Part shown: piece by piece, positions 1 to 24,765 of the stretch
Position numbering within the stretch: the first letter of the stretch is position 1
Layout: every line of letters starts with the position of its first letter
Assembly: GCA_965208575.1 (NCBI GenBank)
Contig: CBDBOV010000004.1
Span: 608,001-672,000, forward strand
Direction of reading: 5' to 3'
DNA: 64,000 nt
From: Spirochaetia bacterium
GTDB taxonomy: Bacteria > Spirochaetota > Spirochaetia > SZUA-6 > Bin103
The notes under the pieces: model-generated
Databases searched by the model: none
What the model saw: only the letters and a program-made list of their open reading frames with translations
Told to the model about the DNA's origin: nothing
Translations under genes and position numbers: made by a program

Positions 1-1119
1 GGCATCGTTCATTGTTTCGAGGTCCAGGGCCATCTGCATCGCCTGGCGCACCCTGATGTCGTCAAAGGGCGGCTTGTTGGTGTTCATGGCAAAGCTGGCA
101 TTCGACCGTTCTGACCACGTGTGGAAAACGAGCTCGGGGTTGGTCTCCCTGAGGCGATCCGCCGTCTCTATCTCGTTCAATTGGGTGGCGCCCGGCCAAC
201 CTATGAAATCGATCTTAGCAGTGCGCAGCCCGGCCAGAAAGGTGGCCTCTTCAGGGATAACAAGACCCACTACCTCGTCAATATAGGGCAGGCGGTTCTC
301 CGGGTATTTTTCGTCGAAGCCCCAGTAGTTGGGATTCTTGGTCCAGGTTATGGAGCTGCCCTTGGTAAAGTCAGTTATCGTATAGGGCCCGGTGCCGACA
401 ATATTCCTCCAATCCTGCATGTCCCCGTATTGCTCGATTACCTCGGGCGGCTGTATAACAGCATTCCAGTCGTCCAAAATAAGATTCAGCGCGCGGAGCT
501 TCGGCTCCTTCAGCTTCATCACAACCGTATACTTGTCGGTGGCCTCTACCGATTCGAACGGAAAAGCTTTGAGGGTACCCGATGGGGAAGGGTCGGCTTC
601 ACTGAACTGGGTCCCGGTCAATTTATTTCCCAACAGGCGGTGAAAGCTATGTTCGACATCGTCGGCCGTCAGCTCGCGCCCGTTCATCGGCGCTTTGTCG
701 TGCCAGTGAACCCCCTGGCGGATGTGGAAGATGTAGGTAGTGGCGTCGGGCTGTTCCCAGCTTTCAGCCAGCGCCCCCCTCAGGGCGTAGAGCGGCGCGA
801 CATAGCCGGTGAGAAAGGGATATGTGTCCCTATCTATTGCCCAATCCGCCATGGCCAGTTTCTCTACAACGCCACTGGTCATGCCTAACGCTCGGAAGCC
901 AAACCAGACATCGCCAGGCTCGAGGTTGAATTTGATGGCGTGGGTCAAAGTCCCGCCATACTCTGGCGCGCTCACCACGTTGCCGGTGGTCGGGTCGGTC
1001 ACCATCGGCTTGTCGGCAGCCGCAGCCGCTTCCTCGCCGGCGGGCGCCGCCCACGCGGCGGTTGCGGCCAAGACGAACCCGATCAGTGCCGCAACCCATA
1101 GTCTACAATTTCGTATCAT
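1..1119 (-). CDS. ABC transporter substrate-binding protein, family 5 (DppA/OppA-like), runs off window start
   Basis: Read manually. ATG at 1119 with GGAGG RBS gives MIRNCRLWVAALIGFVLAATAAWAAPAGEEAAAAADKPMVTDPTTGNVVSAPEYGGT..., later LAESWEQPD, WHDKAPMNGRELTADDV, VGTGPY and PFDDIRVRQAMQMA. Paralog of 17804..19612. Confidence 0.9.
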   Translation of the reverse strand, partial: MIRNCRLWVAALIGFVLAATAAWAAPAGEEAAAAADKPMVTDPTTGNVVSAPEYGGTLTHAIKFNLEPGDVWFGFRALGMTSGVVEKLAMADWAIDRDTYPFLTGYVAPLYALRGALAESWEQPDATTYIFHIRQGVHWHDKAPMNGRELTADDVEHSFHRLLGNKLTGTQFSEADPSPSGTLKAFPFESVEATDKYTVVMKLKEPKLRALNLILDDWNAVIQPPEVIEQYGDMQDWRNIVGTGPYTITDFTKGSSITWTKNPNYWGFDEKYPENRLPYIDEVVGLVIPEEATFLAGLRTAKIDFIGWPGATQLNEIETADRLRETNPELVFHTWSERSNASFAMNTNKPPFDDIRVRQAMQMALDLETMNDA

Positions 1120-1614
1120 GAGGTTTCCTCCAACCTTCGTTTCTTCGAGAGTGCTGAATTCAGTTGCCGGCCCGCGCCGACTCTCGCGGTATGCCTGCGA
1201 TTCGCAGGGACCGAACAGCGCGGGCGGCACCCTCGACCACGAGCAGTGCCTGGGGTGCCGGCGGGTGGACTGCGGGCGAGCGGCCCGTTGCCGGGAGTTC
1301 CCGCCTGGTGAGGTGACCGGCCGACGACGAATCGGCCGCGAGGCAGCGCCGCGGTCAGCGGACCGCGCAGGCTGCGCAGAAGGTAGCGGTCGCGACCGGC
1401 TAACTCGTTAGTGTTTCTGAGGTTGTATGGAAATGGGCCCCGGTGGGGGGGCAGAGGGCGTCGAGCAGCGGAACGGCGGTAGAGCGCACCGGTTGCGCTA
1501 TCTGCAACCGGCGGCGGCGCTGGGTACTGTCGTCACGCGTCATTCGCATCCGTTCCACCCGCAGCCCGCAGCCATCATTGCACACGCACGGCACACCGTC
1601 AAATGGCCGCGGGG
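990..1614. repeat. ~620-bp direct repeat, copy 1: SBP signal-peptide region, long leader and promoter (copy 2 at ~19484..20105)
   Basis: Near-identical sequence at both loci with only scattered substitutions and small indels. Confidence 0.95.
1574..1602 (-). promoter_or_regulatory. Putative sigma70 promoter for the SBP gene (TTGACG-17-AATGAT)
   Basis: Both hexamers and the 17-nt spacing are conserved in the second repeat copy (20063..20091). Homology between the copies ends just upstream of the -35. Confidence 0.5.
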
Positions 1615-4010: not shown

Positions 4011-5498
4011 ATGAAGCCATCGTCCCGACACGCGGCGGAGCGCCAGCTCGTCGAGGAGATCGAGGCGCGCTCCGAAGCCTTCGAGAACCTGCAGGTACTC
4101 GCCGACGATATCGGCACGCGGCAGCCGGGCACCGCGAACGAGGTGCGGGCCCGTGACTTTCTGTGCGACACCCTGAAGCGCTATGGACTTCATCAGGTCC
4201 GGGCGGAACCGTTCCAACACCGGGCATGGACGCCGGTCCGGGAGGAGCTGACGCTCTGCGCCCCCGTGGACCGGACGATTCAGTGCCGCTGCGCCGTGCT
4301 GTCGCCGTCCACGCCCCCCGACGGTCAGGTGGGTGAGGCCGTCATCCTCGAGCGCGGCGACCCCGCCGACTTCGAGCAGCACCGGGAGCAGATCCGTGGC
4401 CGGTTCGTCGTGTCGCTTTACGACTCGACGTACGTGGACGGAGTTGCGCACAGCATCCCACGCCAAATGAAGACCGAGCTTGCGGCGCGATACGGGGCGC
4501 TGGGTTTCATCGGCTGGCACCACAGCCCCGGACAGCACCTGCCCGCGGGAACGTGCGCGTTCGGGCGCGTCGGCGGCGTACCGGTGGCATCGATCACCTA
4601 CGAAGACGGCGCATGGCTTCAGCGTGTCGCACGGCGCAGGGGGGCGCTGCGGTTTCGCCTGCTGCTGGACAGCCGGATCGAACGTAAGGACTCCTGGAAC
4701 GTCGTCGGAGAAGTGACCGCCCGGGGCGAAGGGGCGGAAGCGACCGGCAACGAGCACCTCGTCATCGGCGCGCACTACGACTGTCATCACGTTGCTTCGG
4801 GCGCCATCGACAATGCGGCGGGGGTAGCGACCGTGCTCGAGGCCGCGCGGGGGCTGAGCACGTTCGCATCGCATCTTCGACGCGACGTCAAGATCGTCCT
4901 GTTCGGCGTGGAGGAGGCCGGTCTCGTCGGCTCCATGGCCTATGTGCATCGCCACGAGCGGGAGCTGGGCGACCTCGTGCTGATGATCAACAACGACTGT
5001 CTCGGAGGTCGACCGTCCGGCATCGAAATACAGGGTCGCGACGAACTTCGCGGAACCATGGAGCAGGTCGCGGAGAGCGTCCGGATCGGTGGCGAACCTC
5101 CGCCTCCTTTCCGCGTCACGACCGCCCATCCCGGCTGGTGGGGCCTGGACAGCACACCGTTCGGATTCAAGGGCGTCCCGACGGTCCACCTGACGTCGAC
5201 CGAGGCGAAGACCGGGGACTTCGCTTCCTATCACCTCGACACCGATCACATCGACAAGGTGTGCATCCCGGGCCTCACGGAGGCGGCGGCGGTCAACGCG
5301 CGGATCGCCCTCCACGTCGCCAACCTGACCGAGCGCCCGGCGGCTCGCATCGACCGATCGCACGTAGAAGAGATCCTTCACCGATACGACCGGGAGCCGC
5401 CGTTCTACACGATCATCTCGTTGCGCGAATCCCTCGAACTGCTGGATCTCTGGCCGATCGATCATGCGATCGAACGCTACTTTTCCCGCGAAGACTGA
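4011..5498 (+). CDS. M28-family metallopeptidase with PA domain
   Basis: GAHYD, GAIDNAAG, EEAGLVGS, NND and YHLDTD zinc-ligand motifs. Confidence 0.9.
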   Translation: MKPSSRHAAERQLVEEIEARSEAFENLQVLADDIGTRQPGTANEVRARDFLCDTLKRYGLHQVRAEPFQHRAWTPVREELTLCAPVDRTIQCRCAVLSPSTPPDGQVGEAVILERGDPADFEQHREQIRGRFVVSLYDSTYVDGVAHSIPRQMKTELAARYGALGFIGWHHSPGQHLPAGTCAFGRVGGVPVASITYEDGAWLQRVARRRGALRFRLLLDSRIERKDSWNVVGEVTARGEGAEATGNEHLVIGAHYDCHHVASGAIDNAAGVATVLEAARGLSTFASHLRRDVKIVLFGVEEAGLVGSMAYVHRHERELGDLVLMINNDCLGGRPSGIEIQGRDELRGTMEQVAESVRIGGEPPPPFRVTTAHPGWWGLDSTPFGFKGVPTVHLTSTEAKTGDFASYHLDTDHIDKVCIPGLTEAAAVNARIALHVANLTERPAARIDRSHVEEILHRYDREPPFYTIISLRESLELLDLWPIDHAIERYFSRED

Positions 5499-13432: not shown

Positions 13433-14640
13433 CTACGCGAGAGCCTGGAACGCCTTCGCGGTTGCCGTCAGCGCCTGCTCGATGTCGGCTTCGGTGTGCG
13501 CGATCGACAGGAACATGTTGTGCCACGGGTGCAGGTAGACGCCGTTCTGCAGGGCGTGGGTGCAGAACGCCATGCCCTTCTCCATCTTCGGGTCGTCCTC
13601 GAACATGACGGTGGGGATCTGCGGGGGGCCGCTCTGGCGGATCGCGTGGCCGTAACGGGTGGATTGCTCCGCGAGGCCGTCACGGAACAGTTGACCCATG
13701 CGCGCGGTCAGGGCCGGAGCGTCGACCTCGGCGAGAAGATCGAGCGTCTCGATGGCCGCCGCCAGCGGCGCCGCTGGTACCAGAGCGATCCGGTCACGAA
13801 GATGGACTCGGCCGCTTCGCGGTAGGGCTCGCTGCCGAGGATGGCCGACAGCGGTTCGCCGTTGGCGATCGCCTTGCCCCAGGCCGACAGGTCGGGCTGG
13901 ATTCCCAGCAACGACCAACTCGCATCCAGGGACAGACGCAGTCCGGCGCGGACATCATCCAGGATGAGCGCGGCACCCTCGGCGTCGCAGATCGCGCGCG
14001 CCTTCCGGGCGAAGGCCGGGTCGGGCAGCTCCTGGTGGTAGCCGGCGTCGTGCTTGAAGGCCGAGACCACGATGCCCGCGAGGTCTCCCGAGGCCGCCTT
14101 GGCTGCTGCGGTCAGGCTGTCGATGTCGTTGTAGGTGTAGCGTGGAAAGAGCTCGTGCTCCTCTGCCGGCGTTCCGTGCGACATCCGATTCGCCCACGGC
14201 TGTGCGCAGTGGTAGGCGCCGCGCGCGACCAAGATGTTCCGCTTCTCGCTCTTCGCGCGGGCCACCATGTTGCACACGGTGGTGGCGTCGTTGCCGTTCT
14301 TGGCGAAGATCGCCCAATCGGCGTGGCTCACCTGGTCCACGAAGCGCTCAGCCAGGTCGACCATGACCGGCGGCGGGCCGTTGGCGATGTCCAGCAGATC
14401 CCGCTGCGCGTCGGCAGCAGCGGCGATCCGCCGGTTGCCGTACCCGGCGATCATCGGGCCAAAGGCGCACATGAAGTCGATATACTCGTTGCCGTCCACG
14501 TCCCAGAGGCGGCAGCCATCGGCCCGGTGATAGTACTGGGGATAACCCGGCGGCATCTTCCGATAGACTGACATGTGGCCGTACATGCCACCGGGGATCA
14601 CGCGCTTGGCGCGTTCTCGGAGCGCTGCGTCAGTGTTCAT
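13433..14640 (-). pseudogene. Class III aminotransferase (glutamate-1-semialdehyde aminomutase-like) with a single frameshift near 13775
   Basis: IPGGMYGH, WDVDGNEYIDF, KNGNDAT, ILDDVRAG and WGKAIANG. The C-terminus continues in another frame after ...TACCAG|CGGCGCCG. Confidence 0.85.
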
Positions 14641-14662
14641 GTTCCAGACCCCGCCTTGCTGG

Positions 14663-15747
14663 CGCTTTACGACTCGACGTACGTGGACGGAGTTGCGCAC
14701 AGCATCCCACGCCAAATGAAGACCGAGCTTGCGGCGCGATACGGGGCGCTGGGTTTCATCGGCTGGCACCACAGCCCCGGACAGCACCTGCCCGCGGGAA
14801 CGTGCGCGTTCGGGCGCGTCGGCGGCGTACCGGTGGCATCGATCACCTACGAAGACGGCGCATGGCTTCAGCGTGTCGCACGGCGCAGGGGGTCGCTGCG
14901 GTTTCGCCTGCTGCTGGACAGCCGGATCGAACGCAAGGACTCCTGGAACGTCGTCGGAGAAGTGACCGCCCGGGGCGAAGGAGCGGAAGCGACCGGCAAC
15001 GAGCACCTCGTCATCGGCGCGCACTACGACTGTCATCACGTTGCTTCGGGCGCCATCGACAATGCGGCGGGGGTGGCCACCGTGCTCGAGGCCGCGCGGG
15101 GGCTGAGCACGTTCGCATCGCATCTTCGACGCGACGTCAAGATCGTCCTGTTCGGCGTGGAGGAGCCCGGTCTCGTCGGCTCCATGGCCTATGTGCATCG
15201 CCACGAGCGGGAGCTGGGCGACCTCGTGCTGATGATCAACAACGACTGTCTCGGAGGTCGACCGTCCGGCATCGAAATACAGGGTCGCGACGAACTCCGC
15301 GGAACCATGGAGCAGGTCGCGGAGAGCGTCCGGATCGGTGGCGAACCTCCGCCTCCTTTCCGCGTCACGACCGCCCATCCCGGCTGGTGGGGCCTGGACA
15401 GCACACCGTTCGGATTCAAGGGCGTCCCGACGGTCCACCTGACGTCGACCGAGGCGAAGACCGGGGACTTCGCTTCCTATCACCTCGACACCGATCACAT
15501 CGACAAGGTGTGCATCCCGGGCCTCACGGAGGCGGCGGTGGTCAACGCGCGGATCGCCCTCCACGTCGCCAACCTGACCGAGCGCCCGGCGGCTCGCATC
15601 GACCGATCGCACGTAGAAGAGATCCTTCACCGATACGACCGGGAGCCGCCGTTCTACACGATCATCTCGTTGCGCGAATCCCTCGAACTGCTGGATCTCT
15701 GGCCGATCGATCATGCGATCGAACGCTACTTTTCCCGCGAAGACTGA
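14663..15747 (+). pseudogene. 5'-truncated second copy of the M28 peptidase gene
   Basis: Almost identical to 4414..5498 but lacks the first ~134 codons. EEAG is changed to EEPG. Confidence 0.9.
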
Positions 15748-16751
15748 CCGGACGACGGCCGCCGGCCCCCGTAGCGACCGGCGGCGCCGCGCAGACGCGG
15801 GTCCAGCAGGTCCCGCACCGCGTCGCCGAACAGGTTGAGGGCGTAGACCGTCACCGTCAGGCACAGGCCCGGCCACAGCGCCAGCCGCGGCGCAATCTCC
15901 ATGTACTGGCGACCCTCGCGGCTCAGCATGCCGCCCCAGCTTGGAACGGTCACCGGCAGGCCGAAGCCCAGGAAGCTCAGCGACGCCTCGGCAATGATCA
16001 CGCCGCCGACGTTGATGCTGAACACGACGATCAGCGGCGCGGCGATGTTGGGCAGCACGTGACGGACGAGCGTGCGCAGCGTGCGGGCACCGATCGCCTC
16101 CGCGGCCTGGAAGTAGGCGTTCTCCTTGACCCCGATCACCGCGCCGCGCACCACCCGTGACGCGGGAATGCCGCCGGTCACCCCGAGCACGACGATGATC
16201 TGCGCCACGCCGCGCCCGGTGATCGACATGATCGTCAGCAGCAACAGCAGCCCCGGAAACGACATCCACGCGTCCACGAACCGTTGCGCGTAGATGTCCA
16301 GCCGCCCGCCGATGAAGCCGGTGGTGCCGCCGATCAGCAACGCGACGATGACATTCAACGACGTTGCCGCGAGCCCGACCGTAATCGACAGGCGCGCGCC
16401 GATGATGAGGCGGCTCAGGAAGTCGCGGCCGACGTGGTCGGTGCCCAGCAGGTGCGCGGCGGACGGGCCCTGCATCCGGTCCTGCACGCGGCCGCGGTCG
16501 AATTCGTAGGGCGCGAGCTGCGCGGCGAAGATGGTGATGAACACCAGTGCCACGACGATGAGGCCGCCAATGGCTCCCAGCGGCTGTTCCTTCAGCAGCC
16601 GCGAGAGGAAGCTGGCCGCCGGTCGCCGGCGCGCCGGTGCAGGAGCGCCCGCCGCCGAGGGTCCGGCACCCGCGCCGCCGCTTGAGCCGCCACCACCGCG
16701 TGCGCCTGTGCGGCCGGCGCCGGCCGCGGCCCCCGGCGCCGGCTCACTCAT
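15726..16751 (-). CDS. Peptide/nickel ABC permease (DppC/OppC-like)
   Basis: HLLGTDHVGRD, HVLPN, LSFLGFG, PSWGGML and NLFGDAVRDLLDPR. Confidence 0.93.
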   Translation of the reverse strand: MSEPAPGAAAGAGRTGARGGGGSSGGAGAGPSAAGAPAPARRRPAASFLSRLLKEQPLGAIGGLIVVALVFITIFAAQLAPYEFDRGRVQDRMQGPSAAHLLGTDHVGRDFLSRLIIGARLSITVGLAATSLNVIVALLIGGTTGFIGGRLDIYAQRFVDAWMSFPGLLLLLTIMSITGRGVAQIIVVLGVTGGIPASRVVRGAVIGVKENAYFQAAEAIGARTLRTLVRHVLPNIAAPLIVVFSINVGGVIIAEASLSFLGFGLPVTVPSWGGMLSREGRQYMEIAPRLALWPGLCLTVTVYALNLFGDAVRDLLDPRLRGAAGRYGGRRPSSGQSSREK

Positions 16752-17715
16752 AGCGCACCCGCGGATCCAGCAGGGCGTAGGTCAGGTCGGTGCCGAGGTT
16801 GATCACCACCACCACCGAGGCAAATAACAGGTTCACGCCGGAGACCACCGGGTAGTCGCGCGCGTTGAGGGCAGACAGCATCAGACTGCCGAGCCCCGGG
16901 AGATTGAAGATGTTCTCGATGATGACCGAGCCGCCGGCGATGATGGGCAACTGCAGCGCCACCAGGGTCACCACCGGGATGAGGGCGTTCTTGACCGCGT
17001 GGCGCAGCACCACGGTCCTCTCCGCCAGGCCCTTGGCCCAGGAGGTCCTCACGTAGTCCTGGCGCAGCACCTCCAGCATCATCGTGCGCGTCATGCGCAT
17101 GGTGCTCGCTGCCAGGTAGGTCCCCAGAATCACGGCGGGAATGATCAACATGCCGAGATTGGCCCATGGGTCTTCGGTGAAGCGGACGTGCGTCAGCGGC
17201 GGCGTCCAGCCCCACCAGATTGCGGGGTAGATCATCACCATCAGTCCCAGCCAGAAGTTGGGGGTCGCCAGGCCGAAGATGGCGACCGCCCGGCCGGCGT
17301 AGTCGGCCACCGTGTACTGGCGAATCGCCGAGTAGATGCCGATCGGCACGGCGATGATGACCCCGGTGAGGATCGCCAGCAGCCCCAGCTCGACCGTTAC
17401 CCCGACCCTGCCGGCGAGTTTCTGTTCCACCGTTGCGCTGCCCAACGAGCCGCTGTACAGCGAGCGGCCGAGGGTGCCACGCAGGACGATGTCACCGATC
17501 CACTTCGCGTATTGCGCGTAGACGGGTTTATCGAGTCCGAGTTGTCTCTTCAGAGCCTCCTCATCGATCGTGCCGCTCTGGGTTGCGGTCATCCGGGCTG
17601 TCATCACGTCGATGATGTCGCCGGGAATGAAGCGAACCGAGAGAAACACCAGGAGGGTGACGATGAACAGGGTCGGGATCACCAGCAGTATCCGCCTGAT
17701 CACATACGCCCGCAC
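16744..17715 (-). CDS. Peptide/nickel ABC permease (DppB/OppB-like)
   Basis: YVIRR, PGD, PNFWLG, MLEVLRQDYVRT, HAVKNALIP and DPRVRY. Confidence 0.93.
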   Translation of the reverse strand: MRAYVIRRILLVIPTLFIVTLLVFLSVRFIPGDIIDVMTARMTATQSGTIDEEALKRQLGLDKPVYAQYAKWIGDIVLRGTLGRSLYSGSLGSATVEQKLAGRVGVTVELGLLAILTGVIIAVPIGIYSAIRQYTVADYAGRAVAIFGLATPNFWLGLMVMIYPAIWWGWTPPLTHVRFTEDPWANLGMLIIPAVILGTYLAASTMRMTRTMMLEVLRQDYVRTSWAKGLAERTVVLRHAVKNALIPVVTLVALQLPIIAGGSVIIENIFNLPGLGSLMLSALNARDYPVVSGVNLLFASVVVVINLGTDLTYALLDPRVRYE

Positions 17716-17803: not shown

Positions 17804-19612
17804 TCAGAACCCCATTTCTGCCTTCAGGTCCCGGTCGAGCCAGAGCCGGGCAAGAACCTCGTGATAGTTTTCTGGGTGCACGAACGTCTCGCCGTTCCAG
17901 CCCTTGACCCACGGATGCGCCACCTGGAATCCGGGCGCCTTGCCGGTCCACACCTGAAAATGCTGCGAAACGAGGTATTGGTCGAACTCGTTGGCGATTC
18001 GTGTCAGCTCCGCCTCGCTGGTCGCTGTTTGGAACTCGTTATAGAGTCGAATCAGCGTGGCGTTGGGAGTCCCACCGAACCACTCGTTCCAACCGTGCGG
18101 CTCGGTGTCCGCCCCAAGAGAACGGGCGAAGCCTATGATGTGTTCAGGGGCTGCATCGAAGCCCAAATCGCCGGTGGACATCTCGTAGAGTGCGTCCACT
18201 TTACGACTCCACCAGGTGCTGCTGTCGTAGACGTCGATCTCCACCTCCACGCCGATCTCTTTGAAGTAGCCGGCCGCGATCTCGGCGAGGCCCAGGTCGA
18301 TGACGTCGCGGTGGTCGTGGGTGGCCCTGAAGCGGACGCCGTCCGCGCCGCGTGGGTAGCCGGCCTCGTCGAGCAATTGCTCCGCCTTCTCCGGGTCGTA
18401 GCGGTATTGGTCCTGGAGCTCCTTTGGCCACTCGTCGAATGGAAGAAAATAGGGTCCGGTCGCGTTGCCGAAGATGCCCTGGGGCTTCCACAGCGCGTAC
18501 CCGCCATAGTAGCTCTCGTTAACCGCCTCGCGGTCGATCGCCATCTGCATTGCCTGGCGGACGCGGATGTCGTCGAACGGCGGCGTACGGGTGTTCAGGC
18601 CGATTTGCCCGAGCGCCCGGAGGAAGTAGGGGCCCACCTGGATGTCGGGGTTGGTGCGCAACACCGACTCTATCACCTCGAAGGTCTTGATGTCGACGCC
18701 GCCGCCGGCAACGTGGATCATGTCGACCTGGCCGGTGCGAAACGCGGCGAGGCGGGTCGCCTCCTCCGGCATGAACAGACCCTTCAGCTCGTCGACGTAG
18801 GGCAGCCGGTTGTCCGGGTACTTCTCGTCGAAGTCGTGGTAGTTGGGAATGCGCGTCCTGGTTATCGAGACGCCCTCGACGTAGTCAGTGAGCGTGAACG
18901 GCCCGGTGCCGACCACGTTTCGCCAGTCGCTGTAGTCACCGTGCTGCTCGATGACCTCGGGTGGCAGAATCCATGAGTTGGACTGGCCGAGGATCGCCCG
19001 GGCCAGGCCGGCGCGCGGCTCGGTCAGCTTGAATTCGACCGTGTATCGGTCAAGGGCTTCGATGGATTCCCACGGATAACCCTCAACCTCGCCGGCAACT
19101 CTGGGCTCGAAGTCGAGCAGGCCGCCAATGCGGCGGTAGGTAAAGGCGACGTCTTCGGCGGTGAGTTCGCGCCCGTTGACCGGCGGCTTGTCGTGCCAGC
19201 GGATGTCCGGTTTGATCTTGACGATCAGCGTTCGGTCGTCCGGCTGCTCCCAGCTCTCGGCCAGGTTGCCCTTGAAGCGCGAGAACGGCACATACCAACC
19301 GGTAAAGCTCACCTCGTCCCGGGGCGCACCCCAGTCTCCCTTCGCAAGCTTCTCGTTGACCGCGTAGATCTGATAGCCGGAGTAGTGTCCTGTGATATGC
19401 GGGTCGGTGGTCTCCCCGAACAGCTTGTACGGGTAGGTCAGCGTGCCGCCGTACTCGGGTGCGGTCACCTGCATCCCGGTCGTCGGGTCGGTCACCATCG
19501 GCTTGTCCGCAGCCGCGGCCGCTTCCTCGCCGGCGGGCGCCGCCCACGCGGCGGTTGCGGCCAAGACGAACCCGATCAGTGCCGCAACCCATAGTCTACA
19601 GTTTCGTATCAT
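17804..19612 (-). CDS. ABC transporter substrate-binding protein, family 5
   Basis: True start is ATG at 19612 (GGAGG RBS). Signal peptide identical to the 1..1119 SBP; LAESWEQPD, VGTGPF and DIRVRQAMQMAID. Confidence 0.93.
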   Translation of the reverse strand: MIRNCRLWVAALIGFVLAATAAWAAPAGEEAAAAADKPMVTDPTTGMQVTAPEYGGTLTYPYKLFGETTDPHITGHYSGYQIYAVNEKLAKGDWGAPRDEVSFTGWYVPFSRFKGNLAESWEQPDDRTLIVKIKPDIRWHDKPPVNGRELTAEDVAFTYRRIGGLLDFEPRVAGEVEGYPWESIEALDRYTVEFKLTEPRAGLARAILGQSNSWILPPEVIEQHGDYSDWRNVVGTGPFTLTDYVEGVSITRTRIPNYHDFDEKYPDNRLPYVDELKGLFMPEEATRLAAFRTGQVDMIHVAGGGVDIKTFEVIESVLRTNPDIQVGPYFLRALGQIGLNTRTPPFDDIRVRQAMQMAIDREAVNESYYGGYALWKPQGIFGNATGPYFLPFDEWPKELQDQYRYDPEKAEQLLDEAGYPRGADGVRFRATHDHRDVIDLGLAEIAAGYFKEIGVEVEIDVYDSSTWWSRKVDALYEMSTGDLGFDAAPEHIIGFARSLGADTEPHGWNEWFGGTPNATLIRLYNEFQTATSEAELTRIANEFDQYLVSQHFQVWTGKAPGFQVAHPWVKGWNGETFVHPENYHEVLARLWLDRDLKAEMGF

Positions 19613-20105
19613 GAGGTTTCCTCCAAACCTTCGTTTCTTCGAGAGTGCTGAATTCAGTTGCCGGCCCGCGCCGACTCTCGCGGTATGCCTGCGATTCGCA
19701 GGGACCGAACAGCGCGGGCGGCACCCTCGACCACGAGCAGTGCCTGGGGTGCTGGCGGGTGGACTGCGGGCGAGCGGCCCGTTGCCGGGAGTTCCCGCCT
19801 GGTGAGGTGACCCGCCGACGACGAATCGGCGGTGAGGCAGCGCCGCGGTCAGCGGACCGCGCAGGCTGCGCAGAAGGTAGCGGTTGCGACCGGCTAACTC
19901 GTTAGTGTTTCTGAGGTTGTATGGAAATAGCCCTGGGGGGGAGGGGGGTACAGAGGGCGTAGAGCGGCGGTAGAGCGCCGGTTGCGCTATCTGCAACCGG
20001 CGGCGGCGCCCGGTACTGTCGTCACGCGTCATTCGCATCCGTTCCACCCGAAGCCCGCAGCCATCATTGCGCACGCACGGCATACCGTCAAATAGCCGCG
20101 GGGCG
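19484..20105. repeat. ~620-bp direct repeat, copy 2 (signal peptide, leader and promoter)
   Basis: Matches 990..1614. Confidence 0.95.
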
Positions 20106-20179
20106 GCCGCCGTGATCGAGTACGGTCGCCAGAGTGGCGGGCTCGATGCTACACTGGAGGTCGGACTGCAGGATCGGTC

Positions 20180-20459
20180 GTGGCGCTGACGTTCGAGTGG
20201 GGTGAGGTGAAGGCAAGCGCCAACATGCGCAAGCACGGTGTAGGGTTTGAGGAAGCCGCGACGGCGTTCGGCGACGTCCTGTCGGTGACCGTTGCCGACC
20301 CGGATCACTCGCTCGATGAGGAACGATTCATCCTCCTCGGTTTGACCGAGCGCAGCCGGCTCTTGGTCATCGCACACCGTGCGTGGTGACGCAATTCGAC
20401 TGATCAGCGCTCGGCTGGCTACAGCCAAAGAGCGGTGAGGGTATGAAGAAGGAACCTGA
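20180..20459 (+). pseudogene. BrnT toxin (DUF497) pseudogene
   Basis: FEWGEVKASANMRKHGVGFEEA...EERFILLG, then a frameshift. The continuation DAIRLISARLATAKER*GYEE carries a further in-frame stop. Confidence 0.85.
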
Positions 20460-20661
20460 CACGAGACGGATTGACGAGTTGCGCGAAGAGTACGACTTCT
20501 CGGGTGGAGTCCGCGGCAAATATGCCGCACGATATGGCGAGGGTGCGAACATCGTCATCCTCGATCCGGATATCGCAAAGGTGTTTCGTGACTCGAAGTC
20601 GGTAAACGAAGCCCTCCGCGCACTTGTCGAGGTGGCGAACAGGGCGGCAGCGGCTGGGTGA
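20443..20661 (+). CDS. BrnT-associated antitoxin
   Basis: DELREEYDFSGGVRGKYA...LDPDIAKVFRDSKSVNEALR; overlaps the toxin 3' end. Confidence 0.85.
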   Translation: MKKEPDTRRIDELREEYDFSGGVRGKYAARYGEGANIVILDPDIAKVFRDSKSVNEALRALVEVANRAAAAG

Positions 20662-20857
20662 CAGGCCGGCCGGGAGCGGACCGCGCGGTTCGCCTCGGCT
20701 GAGGAGCTGTTTCGCCCACCCGAAGATCACCGGGTGGAGGCCAGCATGGCGTCGCCATCACTACTGCCGTAGCTCTCGGTGGCGCTCACTCGGTCCAATC
20801 GCCGAATCGGCATCCGGACCGCCCGCGCCCTTCCCGGCGAACGCAACCCGGCCCTTC

Positions 20858-21832
20858 TCAAGCGACCACCATCCTGATCGCGCCGACGGCGCGTCCATCG
20901 AGCTCGAAGTCGGCGGCCGTGCCCGCTTCCCGGAAGCCAAGCTCCTCGAACAGCGACCGCTTCTCCTCGTCCTCCACGCACACCACCGCCCGGCACTCGG
21001 CGGCCCCCCGCGCCGCTCCCCGCTGCATTGCGGCAGCCATCAGGCCGGACCATGCGGCGGCAAAGTACGGGTGCGTGAAGCCGTCGACCTGGCAGGCGGC
21101 GCCCGATCCGAGCACGGTCGCCAGCCCCACGACGCGGTCGTCGGCCGTGCGCGCGCAGAACCAGTCGCCGGCGCCGCCGGCCACCGCGGCCAGGTAGCGC
21201 CGGTACAGCCCCATGCAGGAGTACTGGACGCAGTAGCGGGTCGAGTACATGCCGGCGTTGGCGTCCAGCACCTGCCAGTCGTGGGGCGCGTGCAGCAGGG
21301 GGATCATCGGTACCCGCACCGCCGCGGTGGCGGGCGCCACGGTGGCCTCCCCCGGCTCGCGGAAGTAGTCGACCAGGAACGCCTCCGGCGAGTCACCGCT
21401 GCTGATGTTGGCCATGACGTCGGCGCCGGCCAGCTTGCGCCAGCCGAGCCGGTGGTAGATCCTGCGCACCGCCGGCACGGAGGTGCCGAGGAACAGCGCC
21501 TCGCCGCCGGCGGCGCGAAACTCCTCCACCGCCCGCCCGCACAGCCGGGTGGCGACGCCGCTGCCGCGCAATTCGGGCCTCGTCGCGACTTCCCCAAACC
21601 CGCCCAGGAGGGGGCTTTTGTTCGGCACGGTGATTGCACAAGTGCCCGCCAGAGTCTCGGCCCGCCGCGCCACGTAGACGGTCAGCCGGTTGTGATCCGT
21701 CTCCCGGCCCAGGTACGCATCAGGCGGAACATCGGGCGGATGTTCGTCGGAATACTCGAATATGTCATCCCAAAACGCCCGCAGTTCCGCGGCCAGAGCC
21801 GCGGCTATCGGCGCTTCCACCGTAACGCTCAT
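20858..21832 (-). CDS. GNAT-family N-acetyltransferase (two-domain)
   Basis: GEVATRPELRGSGVATRL acetyl-CoA motif, IYHRLGW, and a second domain ending FEELGF. Confidence 0.8.
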   Translation of the reverse strand: MSVTVEAPIAAALAAELRAFWDDIFEYSDEHPPDVPPDAYLGRETDHNRLTVYVARRAETLAGTCAITVPNKSPLLGGFGEVATRPELRGSGVATRLCGRAVEEFRAAGGEALFLGTSVPAVRRIYHRLGWRKLAGADVMANISSGDSPEAFLVDYFREPGEATVAPATAAVRVPMIPLLHAPHDWQVLDANAGMYSTRYCVQYSCMGLYRRYLAAVAGGAGDWFCARTADDRVVGLATVLGSGAACQVDGFTHPYFAAAWSGLMAAAMQRGAARGAAECRAVVCVEDEEKRSLFEELGFREAGTAADFELDGRAVGAIRMVVA

Positions 21833-24246: not shown

Positions 24247-24311
24247 TTGTGCGCCAATGTCTCACATTTGCGACACGAGAGTCAAGTCAGAAGCGCCGCA
24301 CAGTGGCCTTC

Positions 24312-24765
24312 TCAGGCAGCCACCATTCTGACCGCCCCGACGGTGCGCCCATCGAGCTCGAAGTCGGCGGCAGCGCCCGCCGCGCGGAAGCCGAGCCCTT
24401 CGAACAGCGACCGCTTCTCCTCGTCCTCCACGCATACCACCGCCCGGCACTCGGCGGCCCCCCGCGCCGCTCCCCGCTGCATTGCGGCAGCCATCAGGCC
24501 GGACCATGCGGCGGCAAAGTACGGGTGCGTGAAGCCGTCGACCTGGCAGGCGGCGCCCGATCCGAGCACGGTCGCCAGCCCCACGACGCGGTCGTCGGCC
24601 GTGCGCGCGCAGAACCAGTCGCCGGCGCCGCCGGCCACCGCGGCCAGGTAGCGCCGGTACAGCCCCATGCAGGAGTACTGGACGCAGTAGCGGGTCGAGT
24701 ACATGCCGGCGTTGGCGTCCAGCACCTGCCAGTCGTGGGGCGCGTGCAGCAGGGGGATCATCGGT
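24312..24765 (-). pseudogene. Duplicated 3' half of the GNAT gene (direct repeat of ~20858..21312)
   Basis: PMIPLLHAPHDWQVLD...ELDGRTVGAVRMVAA*, nearly identical at DNA level; no 5' half. Confidence 0.92.

Follow-up and report, generated by a model that had tools for sequence, protein, structure and literature searches.

In the 64,000-nucleotide (nt) stretch of a Spirochaetia genome analysed here (contig CBDBOV010000004.1; hereafter the window), some 450 nt lie between a promoter-like site and the start codon of a gene for a solute-binding protein (SBP) of family 5. What does so long a leader carry, and is any of it kept for its structure? The sequence-only reading of this region (1120–1573) had seen a chain of hairpins, one of them with a compensatory base-pair change, and had proposed that the structure is selected as a riboswitch, attenuator or stabiliser. 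The leader to which that single change drew attention was the right one; the place within it was not. The element picked out by comparison of paralogs is an H-type pseudoknot at the 3′ end of the leader, just before the Shine–Dalgarno (SD) sequence. Since the pseudoknot recurs, kept by matching mutations, before most of a hundred-odd sister genes of this sponge-associated bacterium, it probably represents a new control element that they share.

A pseudoknot ahead of the Shine–Dalgarno sequence

When the leader (1121–1625) was compared by BLAST with 61 related genomes, the matches formed a modular pattern. Full- or half-length matches were found only with the closest paralogs of G000, the genome from which the window derives, and of G001, G005 and G006 (G001–G010 are other genomes of the genus). 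The query stretch 16–113 recurred at 74–84% identity beside many SBP genes whose proteins are 41–50% identical. Matches to these distant paralogs cover the motif only and stop at its edges, and it therefore forms an island of conservation. The motif itself emerged when the 140-nt sequences upstream of 29 of these SBP starts were aligned. Its general order is strand a (UGYCG followed by CCNUCGC), hairpin P2, strand c (CGAGAGU), 0–2 nt, strand a′ (GCGANGG-xx-CGGCA), 7–12 nt and strand c′ (ACUCUCG), after which 8–32 nt containing the SD lead to the start codon. In the window its parts are as follows.

1143 to 1236, minus strand: the whole motif, a class-1 example 94 nt long and the first of the two window copies, matched by covariance models; its 3′ end lies 23 nt before the ATG.
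1218 to 1229, minus strand: strand a, UGCCG followed by CCCGCGC, the 5′ strand of the 12-base-pair (bp) helix a:a′, pairing with 1165–1177.
1194 to 1208, minus strand: hairpin P2, CCUGCG-AAU-CGCAGG, which is optional; six of its seven pairs are double-changed.
1180 to 1186, minus strand: strand c, CGAGAGU, the 5′ strand of the crossing helix c:c′, pairing with 1146–1152.
1165 to 1177, minus strand: strand a′, GCGCGGG-C-CGGCA, beginning 2 nt (GG, 1178–1179) after c.
1146 to 1152, minus strand: strand c′, ACUCUCG, the 3′ strand of helix c:c′.
19637 to 19730, minus strand: the motif again, as window copy 2, ahead of SBP copy 2 (17807–19612); also a covariance-model match.

Because the strands follow one another in the order a, c, a′, c′, the fold is an H-type pseudoknot, and each of its two crossing helices is supported independently of the other. 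Window copy 1 scores 88.4 bits with covariance model R1 and 83.2 bits with R2 (G000:C4:609143-609236); copy 2 is matched at G000:C4:627637-627730. R1 describes only a:a′ and P2, and R3 only P2 and c:c′, leaving in each case one crossing helix outside the model.

R1 gave 133 matches in 100 fetched loci of seven genomes, all of one genus. The pseudoknot was written afterwards into the R1 alignment of 125 distinct rows, which was compared with controls in which the partners were slid by 1–3 columns and with 500 shuffles. Pairing was found in 88.1% of 3373 cells, against 32–58% when the 3′ partners were slid. Twenty-six of the 29 pairs had changed on both sides, compared with 14.6 ± 1.5 in shuffles; there were 224 double-changed cells against 84, 59 extra pair types against 46, and a covariation score of 0.205 against 0.115, and on all five measures 0 of 500 shuffles did as well. 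Helix c:c′, which lies outside the R1 model, had 8 of 10 pairs double-changed (for example GC 52 and AU 40; UA 83 and CG 19; AU 94 and GC 12). In the converse realignment with R3, the unfitted helix a:a′ was 87.4% paired in its outer 5 bp and 94.6% in its inner 7 bp, with 8 of 12 pairs double-changed, while the whole structure was 87.8% paired against 35–53% when slid, again with 0 of 500 shuffles equalling it on any measure. Across the R1 and R3 alignments, 22–26 of the 29 pairs are double-changed.

Individual variants tell the same story. Minimal forms of 66–70 nt are without P2 and retain both crossing helices, and one a:a′ pair is U-A in most relatives, U·C in the closest orthologues and G-C in window copies 1 and 2. 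The helix cores are nearly invariant in sequence (GC 120, GC 121 and AU 121 of 125). Together these comparisons establish each crossing helix of the pseudoknot and selection on its fold. The earlier proposal of a structure under selection thus holds for 1143–1236, and of the stems on which it was based CCTGCG-ATT-CGCAGG (1194–1208, plus-strand coordinates) is P2 itself; another, GGCACCC/GGGTGCC (1227–1233/1253–1259), is present, and the pseudoknot merely overlaps its 3′ arm.

Association with one gene family

The motif is tied to a single kind of gene. Of the 29 R1 hits in the own genome, 28 sit directly ahead of the start of an SBP paralog of about 600 amino acids (aa), oriented as the gene is, and these paralogs are 37–100% identical to the SBP of the window; the 29th has no intact gene downstream. 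This genome of 6.5 Mb holds 152 SBP5-like loci; the alignment is longer than 400 aa for 125 of them and reaches at least 35% identity for 110. When leader classes were assigned by nhmmer profiles to the 200 nt upstream of these 110 paralogs, a pseudoknot-type leader was found in 79, class 1 being the best match in 23 and class 2 in 56. In class 2 the strand order is the same, but a:a′ is shorter (CUGGC/GCCAG) and the loop carries one hairpin more, P4. Its 51 distinct rows all come from the own genome; the four helices are 86–95% paired, against 6–64% when slid, with few double changes. The unpaired nucleotides of the two classes are dissimilar.

Beyond the pseudoknot, these leaders carry further recurrent features. 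Class-2 leaders (56 SBP genes, for example G000:C4:507084, minus strand) have a long GC-rich palindrome, GCGCGCGGCGTG ... CACGCCGCGCGC, before the pseudoknot; it holds an inner CCGGG-N4-CCCGG hairpin and may be a further structured module. In the leaders of some class-1 paralogs (L046, the first SBP of L044, and L045) a perfect SD (AAGGAGGUG) is located some 110 nt 5′ of the motif, and behind it comes either a start-stop or a three-codon mini-ORF. Among the 31 paralogs outside the two classes, two further recurrent leader types, without a pseudoknot, place two plain GC-rich hairpins before a strong SD (GAGGAGGAG), as at G000:C6:503461 and C3:642218 (both minus strand).

The leader and its transcription

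The region described earlier as 1120–1573 is the upstream region of a minus-strand SBP gene, and the leader, in minus-strand sense, runs from 1120 to about 1567. Around the pseudoknot it is laid out as follows.

1 to 1119, minus strand: 5′ part of the family-5 SBP gene, copy 1, with its ATG at 1119–1117; the gene continues beyond the window.
1126 to 1131, minus strand: SD GGAGGA, 6 nt 5′ of the ATG and kept in close copies.
1237 to 1399, minus strand: mid-leader with the hairpins noted earlier at 1318–1338, 1350–1367 and 1365–1377, alignable among the closest paralogs only.
1400 to 1549, minus strand: upstream reading frame, 49 codons in copy 1, ATG at 1549–1547 and TAG at 1402–1400.
1436 to 1490, minus strand: indel-rich tract with a C run and CTCTAC-like repeats, which shifts the upstream frame between copies.
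1574 to 1602, minus strand: promoter-like site TTGACG-17-AATGAT with a TG, sigma-70-like, with a predicted start near 1567.
19470 to 20105, minus strand: copy 2 of a repeat of about 640 bp, identified by sequence comparison and made up of signal-peptide codons, leader and promoter.

Both SBP products belong to Pfam family SBP_bac_5 (copy 1, PF00496, E=1.6e-54; copy 2, E=4e-65). The promoter scan found three sites where 0.1 were expected, and the site at 1602–1574 implies a leader of about 450 nt; its TTGACG box is kept in the paralog leaders of G001 and G005.

Evidence of transcription comes from assembled contigs of RNA libraries. In runs X17 and X18, from two studies, such contigs tile 980–1554/1573: one (980–1164) bridges the ATG, others (1076–1304 and 1201–1451) bridge the motif and mid-leader, and one matches 1275–1364 without a difference. 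Loose contig ends at 1175 and 1208 belong to the motif of another paralog, so that this too is present in RNA. The contigs end at 1554–1573, which is compatible with a start near 1567, a weak hint. In runs X15 and X16 the contigs span the SBP body and the BrnA gene and leave out the leader, and 1574–1680 is uncovered in any RNA contig; as contigs say nothing about absence, neither is used as evidence. The presence of the motif in RNA libraries is clear, and the 450 nt are probably the transcribed 5′ leader of an Opp/Dpp-type SBP gene on the minus strand.

Is the leader a decayed gene, or does it work by attenuation? Four ORFs in or overlapping it had no Pfam match at E≤0.01, and no decayed gene is therefore seen; the longer 89-aa frame at 1400–1669 had no Pfam match, and the lengths of the indels that separate the copies are not divisible by three. 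The earlier description of a transcribed, non-coding, structured leader agrees with these results and with the RNA contigs over 980–1573. The attenuator that had been offered as one of its functions is not supported, since the minus strand has no terminator-like site in 1120–1570. Nor does the upstream frame (1549–1400) have the form of a leader-peptide attenuator: it is without a terminator stem and U run, and it is unconserved between copies. In copies 2 and 3 indels in the C run and CTCTAC-like tract keep it open into the SBP ATG, giving open frames of 908 aa (copy 2, ORF 17804–20530, minus strand) and 657 aa (copy 3, L002 3–1973, minus strand).

The compensatory change in the mid-leader

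The observation that first drew attention to this leader lies outside the pseudoknot. Hairpin 1318–1338, CGGCCGA-N7-TCGGCCG in copy 1, has the counterpart CCGCCGA-N7-TCGGCGG at 19812–19832 in copy 2. The double substitution is real: copies 1 and 3 have G-C at pair 1319/1337 where copy 2 has C-G, with a C1339T change alongside. The two other stems named in this part of the leader are also there. CGCGGTC-AGCG-GACCGCG spans 1350–1367; GCGCAG-G-CTGCGC, at 1365–1377, overlaps it and as an RNA hairpin has just 5 bp and a 3-nt loop. Over 1121–1620, 22 substitutions and 20 gap columns separate copies 1 and 2, and six of the substitutions fall in 1121–1435. With 200,000 random placements of substitutions, a compensatory Watson–Crick double change in a perfect hairpin of at least 6 bp arose with P=0.002 for six changes in 315 nt and with P=0.02 for 22 changes in 500 nt.

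It could be argued from this that the whole chain of hairpins over ~450 nt, 1318–1338 included, forms a single regulatory RNA under selection, either a riboswitch or an attenuator. The chance estimates favour such a reading, as do two sequences with G·U at another pair of the same stem, the RNA contigs across the leader and a sense strand that folds slightly better than shuffles (z=−2.18, 2 of 100 shuffles equally good; z=−0.30 and 35 of 100 for the other strand), although this whole-leader folding signal is too weak to carry a claim alone. The comparative evidence goes the other way. The mid-leader (1237–1399) aligns among nine sequences from four genomes only, the closest paralogs, and RNAalifold predicts 82 pairs there, of which four are double-changed, with a covariation term of −0.04. 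In the changed pair of hairpin 1318–1338 seven of the nine sequences have GC, one has CG and one, the G006 orthologue, keeps C·C, an uncompensated intermediate; the other variable pair is CG in seven and UG in two. Selection on the stem is possible, the data amounting to one event with a living intermediate, but from what is known of mutation mechanisms a double change in a palindrome can also come in one step by template switching or patchy gene conversion. As no terminator-like site accompanies the chain either, a single regulatory RNA of this length is highly unlikely. Wider alignments thus returned a strong covariation signal in the ~94-nt pseudoknot and almost none in the mid-leader, where selection on hairpin 1318–1338 is not demonstrated. 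The rest of the leader, compensated hairpin included, is young, gene-converted sequence of unproven function.

Leaders as gene-conversion cassettes

The repeat of ~640 bp occupies ~975–1616 and ~19470–20105 of the window, and a third copy lies 8.6 kb before it (locus L002, ~1355–1993). The outer edge is sharp, at the identical base in three of three copies with three different flanks beyond, and falls just upstream of the −35 box. Across the gap-free block of leader and signal-peptide codons copies 1 and 2 are ~98% identical (93% over the whole leader), and the three SBP genes are ~94–98% identical there against 46–68% in their gene bodies. The SBP of copy 1 is nevertheless not a sister of the other two: it belongs to another clade, with 46% identity to copy 2 against 68% between copies 2 and 3. 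The near-identity of the copies is thus explained by recent gene conversion between non-sister SBP genes, not by long purifying selection, and leaders behave as gene-conversion cassettes.

The same exchange is visible over the whole family. On a FastTree phylogeny of 106 SBP proteins (four of the 110 were dropped for internal stops or fused hits), class 1 required 18 changes against a shuffled mean of 20.2, a value as low being reached in 46 of 500 shuffles; class 2 required 27 against 35.6 (1 of 500), and the other leaders 11 against 25.6 (0 of 500). Leader class is scattered on the tree, and near-sister proteins often differ in it. Gene conversion inflates sequence similarity; it does not create compensatory pairs.

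All three repeat copies are flanked on the outside by mobile-type genes. Beyond copy 1 is a gene for the antitoxin BrnA (PF14384; 1726–2019, plus strand), beyond copy 2 are two small ORFs putatively resembling a BrnT/antitoxin pair (20183–20660, plus strand), and beyond copy 3 is a 434-aa ORF resembling, putatively, a transposase (L002 2091–3395, plus strand). More long direct repeats occur in the window (4411–4710 and 14660–14959, 99%; 20853–21152 and 24307–24606, 94%), and their sequence suggests further segmental duplication or conversion among operons. SBP copy 2 is followed by two permease genes (BPD_transp_1, OppC_N) and then by a class-III aminotransferase domain (13708–17715, minus strand); an ATPase gene was not identified among the three ORFs tested 3′ of this copy.

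Such mobility raises the question of whether the motif is a repeat acting in DNA: a recombination or gene-conversion hotspot, a set of protein-binding palindromes or a remnant, spread together with the duplicating SBP genes, like a miniature inverted-repeat transposable element (MITE). Of these, the sequence-only reading had named the MITE. Like repetitive extragenic palindromes (REP) and MITE-type repeats it is short, structured and present in many copies per genome. The pairing is strand-symmetric, leaders move between non-sister SBP genes with their promoter and signal-peptide codons, and the sharp outer edge is followed by three different flanks. The motif differs from such repeats in its fixed orientation and distance from the start codon (28 of 29 copies in one orientation, 8–32 nt away), and the alignments contain no terminal inverted repeats or target-site duplications. 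Its two interleaved inverted repeats, with 0–45 nt of spacer variation and compensatory changes in the crossing helices, are unlike a dimer site or transposon end, and the sequence is found in RNA libraries. A role at the DNA level is accordingly extremely unlikely.

Distribution and the expansion of binding proteins

By covariance-model search, 7 of the family's 24 genomes carry the motif; among the order's 92 genomes the number is again 7, all in one genus, and in the other 85 it was not found. Of the four genus members without it, two are 76–81% complete and two are 95% complete. Its occurrence follows the number of SBP5 genes. Among the motif-bearing genomes G000, G001 and G005 have at least 119 each, G006 has 88, G003 58, G007 30 and G008 14; the motif-free members have three each (G009, G010) or none (G002, G004). 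The motif therefore tracks the SBP expansion, 14 to at least 119 genes with it against 0–3 without, and in this genus the expansion of family-5 binding proteins is extreme.

An exact-pattern scan of 241 million metagenome records gave one stretch, with an R2 score of 18.9 bits and no SBP start behind it, which was judged to be chance. An exact 22-nt pattern gave 11 stretches, all in one record, in a genome-contig collection that apparently holds no other relatives and says little on distribution. The DNA sequencing runs that contain the window sequence are labelled sponge metagenome.

Searched against the covariance models of Rfam 15, the whole window had no match at gathering score, and 900–1800 had none at E≤10 on either strand; the earlier failure to recognise a riboswitch consensus agrees with this. 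Full-text literature searches, judged from listings and the openings of abstracts, turned up no description of such a motif. It is classed here as new among RNA motifs but familiar in type, a structured cis element of the 5′ untranslated region (UTR); its multiplicity and cassette-like exchange are unusual.

What the pseudoknot may do

Is the pseudoknot a riboswitch aptamer, then? It would have to bind one global small molecule, such as a nucleotide second messenger or a metabolite of amino-acid or nitrogen status, and so set the translation of all these importer operons at once. A conserved, covarying, aptamer-like structure is found in what the promoter-like site and RNA contigs indicate to be a 5′ UTR, beside the ribosome site; within class 1 the loop and junction nucleotides are conserved, and the peripheral stems are optional or variable in length (P2, and P4 in class 2). 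No Rfam family explains the motif. On the other side stand its copy number (dozens to ~80 per genome, each before a gene of a single protein family whose members presumably take different substrates), its narrow distribution and the different unpaired nucleotides of the two classes. With no terminator-like site and no SD-sequestering helix seen by eye, an expression platform is not visible either. For these reasons a small-ligand riboswitch is the less likely reading, and on the whole an improbable one.

A second possibility is a constitutive structural element that needs no trans factor, a 5′ stabiliser or insulator that would stop decay or ribosomes arriving from the long leader with its upstream frame and repeats, keep the SD open and ensure steady, high SBP output. 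The 31 of 110 paralogs with plain stable hairpins at the same place suggest that structure itself is needed, and in copies 2 and 3 the upstream frame runs into the SBP ATG. RNase Y is present in the own genome, and RNase E/G and RNase J were not found in it at 95% completeness. A block of 5′–3′ exonuclease would, however, have no target, as no RNase J was found. The helix cores are also almost invariant in sequence, beyond what pairing requires, where a mere roadblock needs less, and two classes, both elaborate, persist while being shuffled among genes. A purely structural role is thus doubtful.

The reading favoured here is a shared operator with a trans factor, because the helix cores are nearly invariant and the two elaborate classes have been kept and shuffled. 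The lineage-specific pseudoknot in the last ~94 nt of the leader would be its functional core. Folded just 5′ of the SD, it may set translation initiation, mRNA survival or both; one shared trans-acting factor could read the invariant helix cores (GAGAG/CUCUC and CCNUCGC/GCGANGG), and the pseudoknot might also shield the ribosome site from the long, variable, repeat-bearing leader upstream. That it acts in cis as a common control point for translation initiation and/or survival of the SBP mRNA, probably via one shared trans factor, is a proposal on which the evidence seems evenly poised. A more far-reaching version is unlikely: here one pseudoknot in two interchangeable architectures would be the master switch of ~80–100 ABC importer operons, sensing one global signal (a small ligand, making it a new riboswitch class, or a dedicated RNA-binding protein), and the swapping by gene conversion of leader cassettes (promoter, phase-variable upstream frame, pseudoknot and signal peptide) would rewire which regime each importer follows.

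Several observations weigh against the operator model. Inspection of the alignments by eye, not by systematic search, showed no alternative pairing that would sequester the SD. A candidate trans factor was not identified, and CsrA was not found in the 95%-complete genome; with RNase J and RNase E/G also not found there, the ideas of a CsrA operator and of an RNase J block are lowered, although not excluded. Wobble pairs give no strand call (167 G·U cells against 170 A·C), and since pairing is strand-symmetric the folding strand is deduced from gene orientation and the promoter. Assembled RNA contigs for their part prove no 5′ end, strand or level. Gene conversion exchanges leaders between paralogs, so that alignment cells are not independent events and part of the sequence conservation is concerted evolution. 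The plain hairpins before the SD in 31 of 110 paralogs fit a generic structural role equally well, and the motif is confined to part of one genus.

Relation to known elements and significance

The SAM-II, preQ1-II, preQ1-III and guanidine-III riboswitches are H-type pseudoknots beside the ribosome site. The present motif resembles them in being a compact, crossing-helix pseudoknot in the 5′ UTR, a few nt before the SD, with covariation support and optional hairpins. It differs in having no Rfam match, no SD in its 3′ strand and no known ligand, and in occurring in dozens of copies per genome before one gene family in part of one genus. Among translational operators, those of E. coli rpsO (S15) and the alpha operon (S4) and of T4 gene 32 are pseudoknots bound by proteins. 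The likeness here lies in the position immediately upstream of the SD and in sequence-conserved helix cores, which suggest recognition by a factor; the difference is that those sites are single-copy and autoregulatory for the encoded protein, whereas this motif precedes ~80 transporter genes and has no known binder.

Comparable in setting are the msiK, livK and potC motifs from the surveys of Weinberg and Breaker, reportedly orphan structured RNAs upstream of ABC-transporter genes. They too are reported to be 5′-UTR motifs of ABC importer components, found by comparative analysis and of unknown function; they differ from the present motif in sequence and fold, and they are in Rfam, in which none matched here. 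None of them is known to have multiplied to a comparable copy number in one genome.

If the pseudoknot is a true control element, it would represent a new RNA family, with one cis element at ~80 copies per genome. At 66–94 nt it is compact enough to be amenable to in vitro testing with ligands or proteins. In an uncultured sponge symbiont it would govern the gene family with the most members, more than 100 Opp/Dpp-type binding proteins, and would offer a handle on how symbionts coordinate nutrient uptake from their host.

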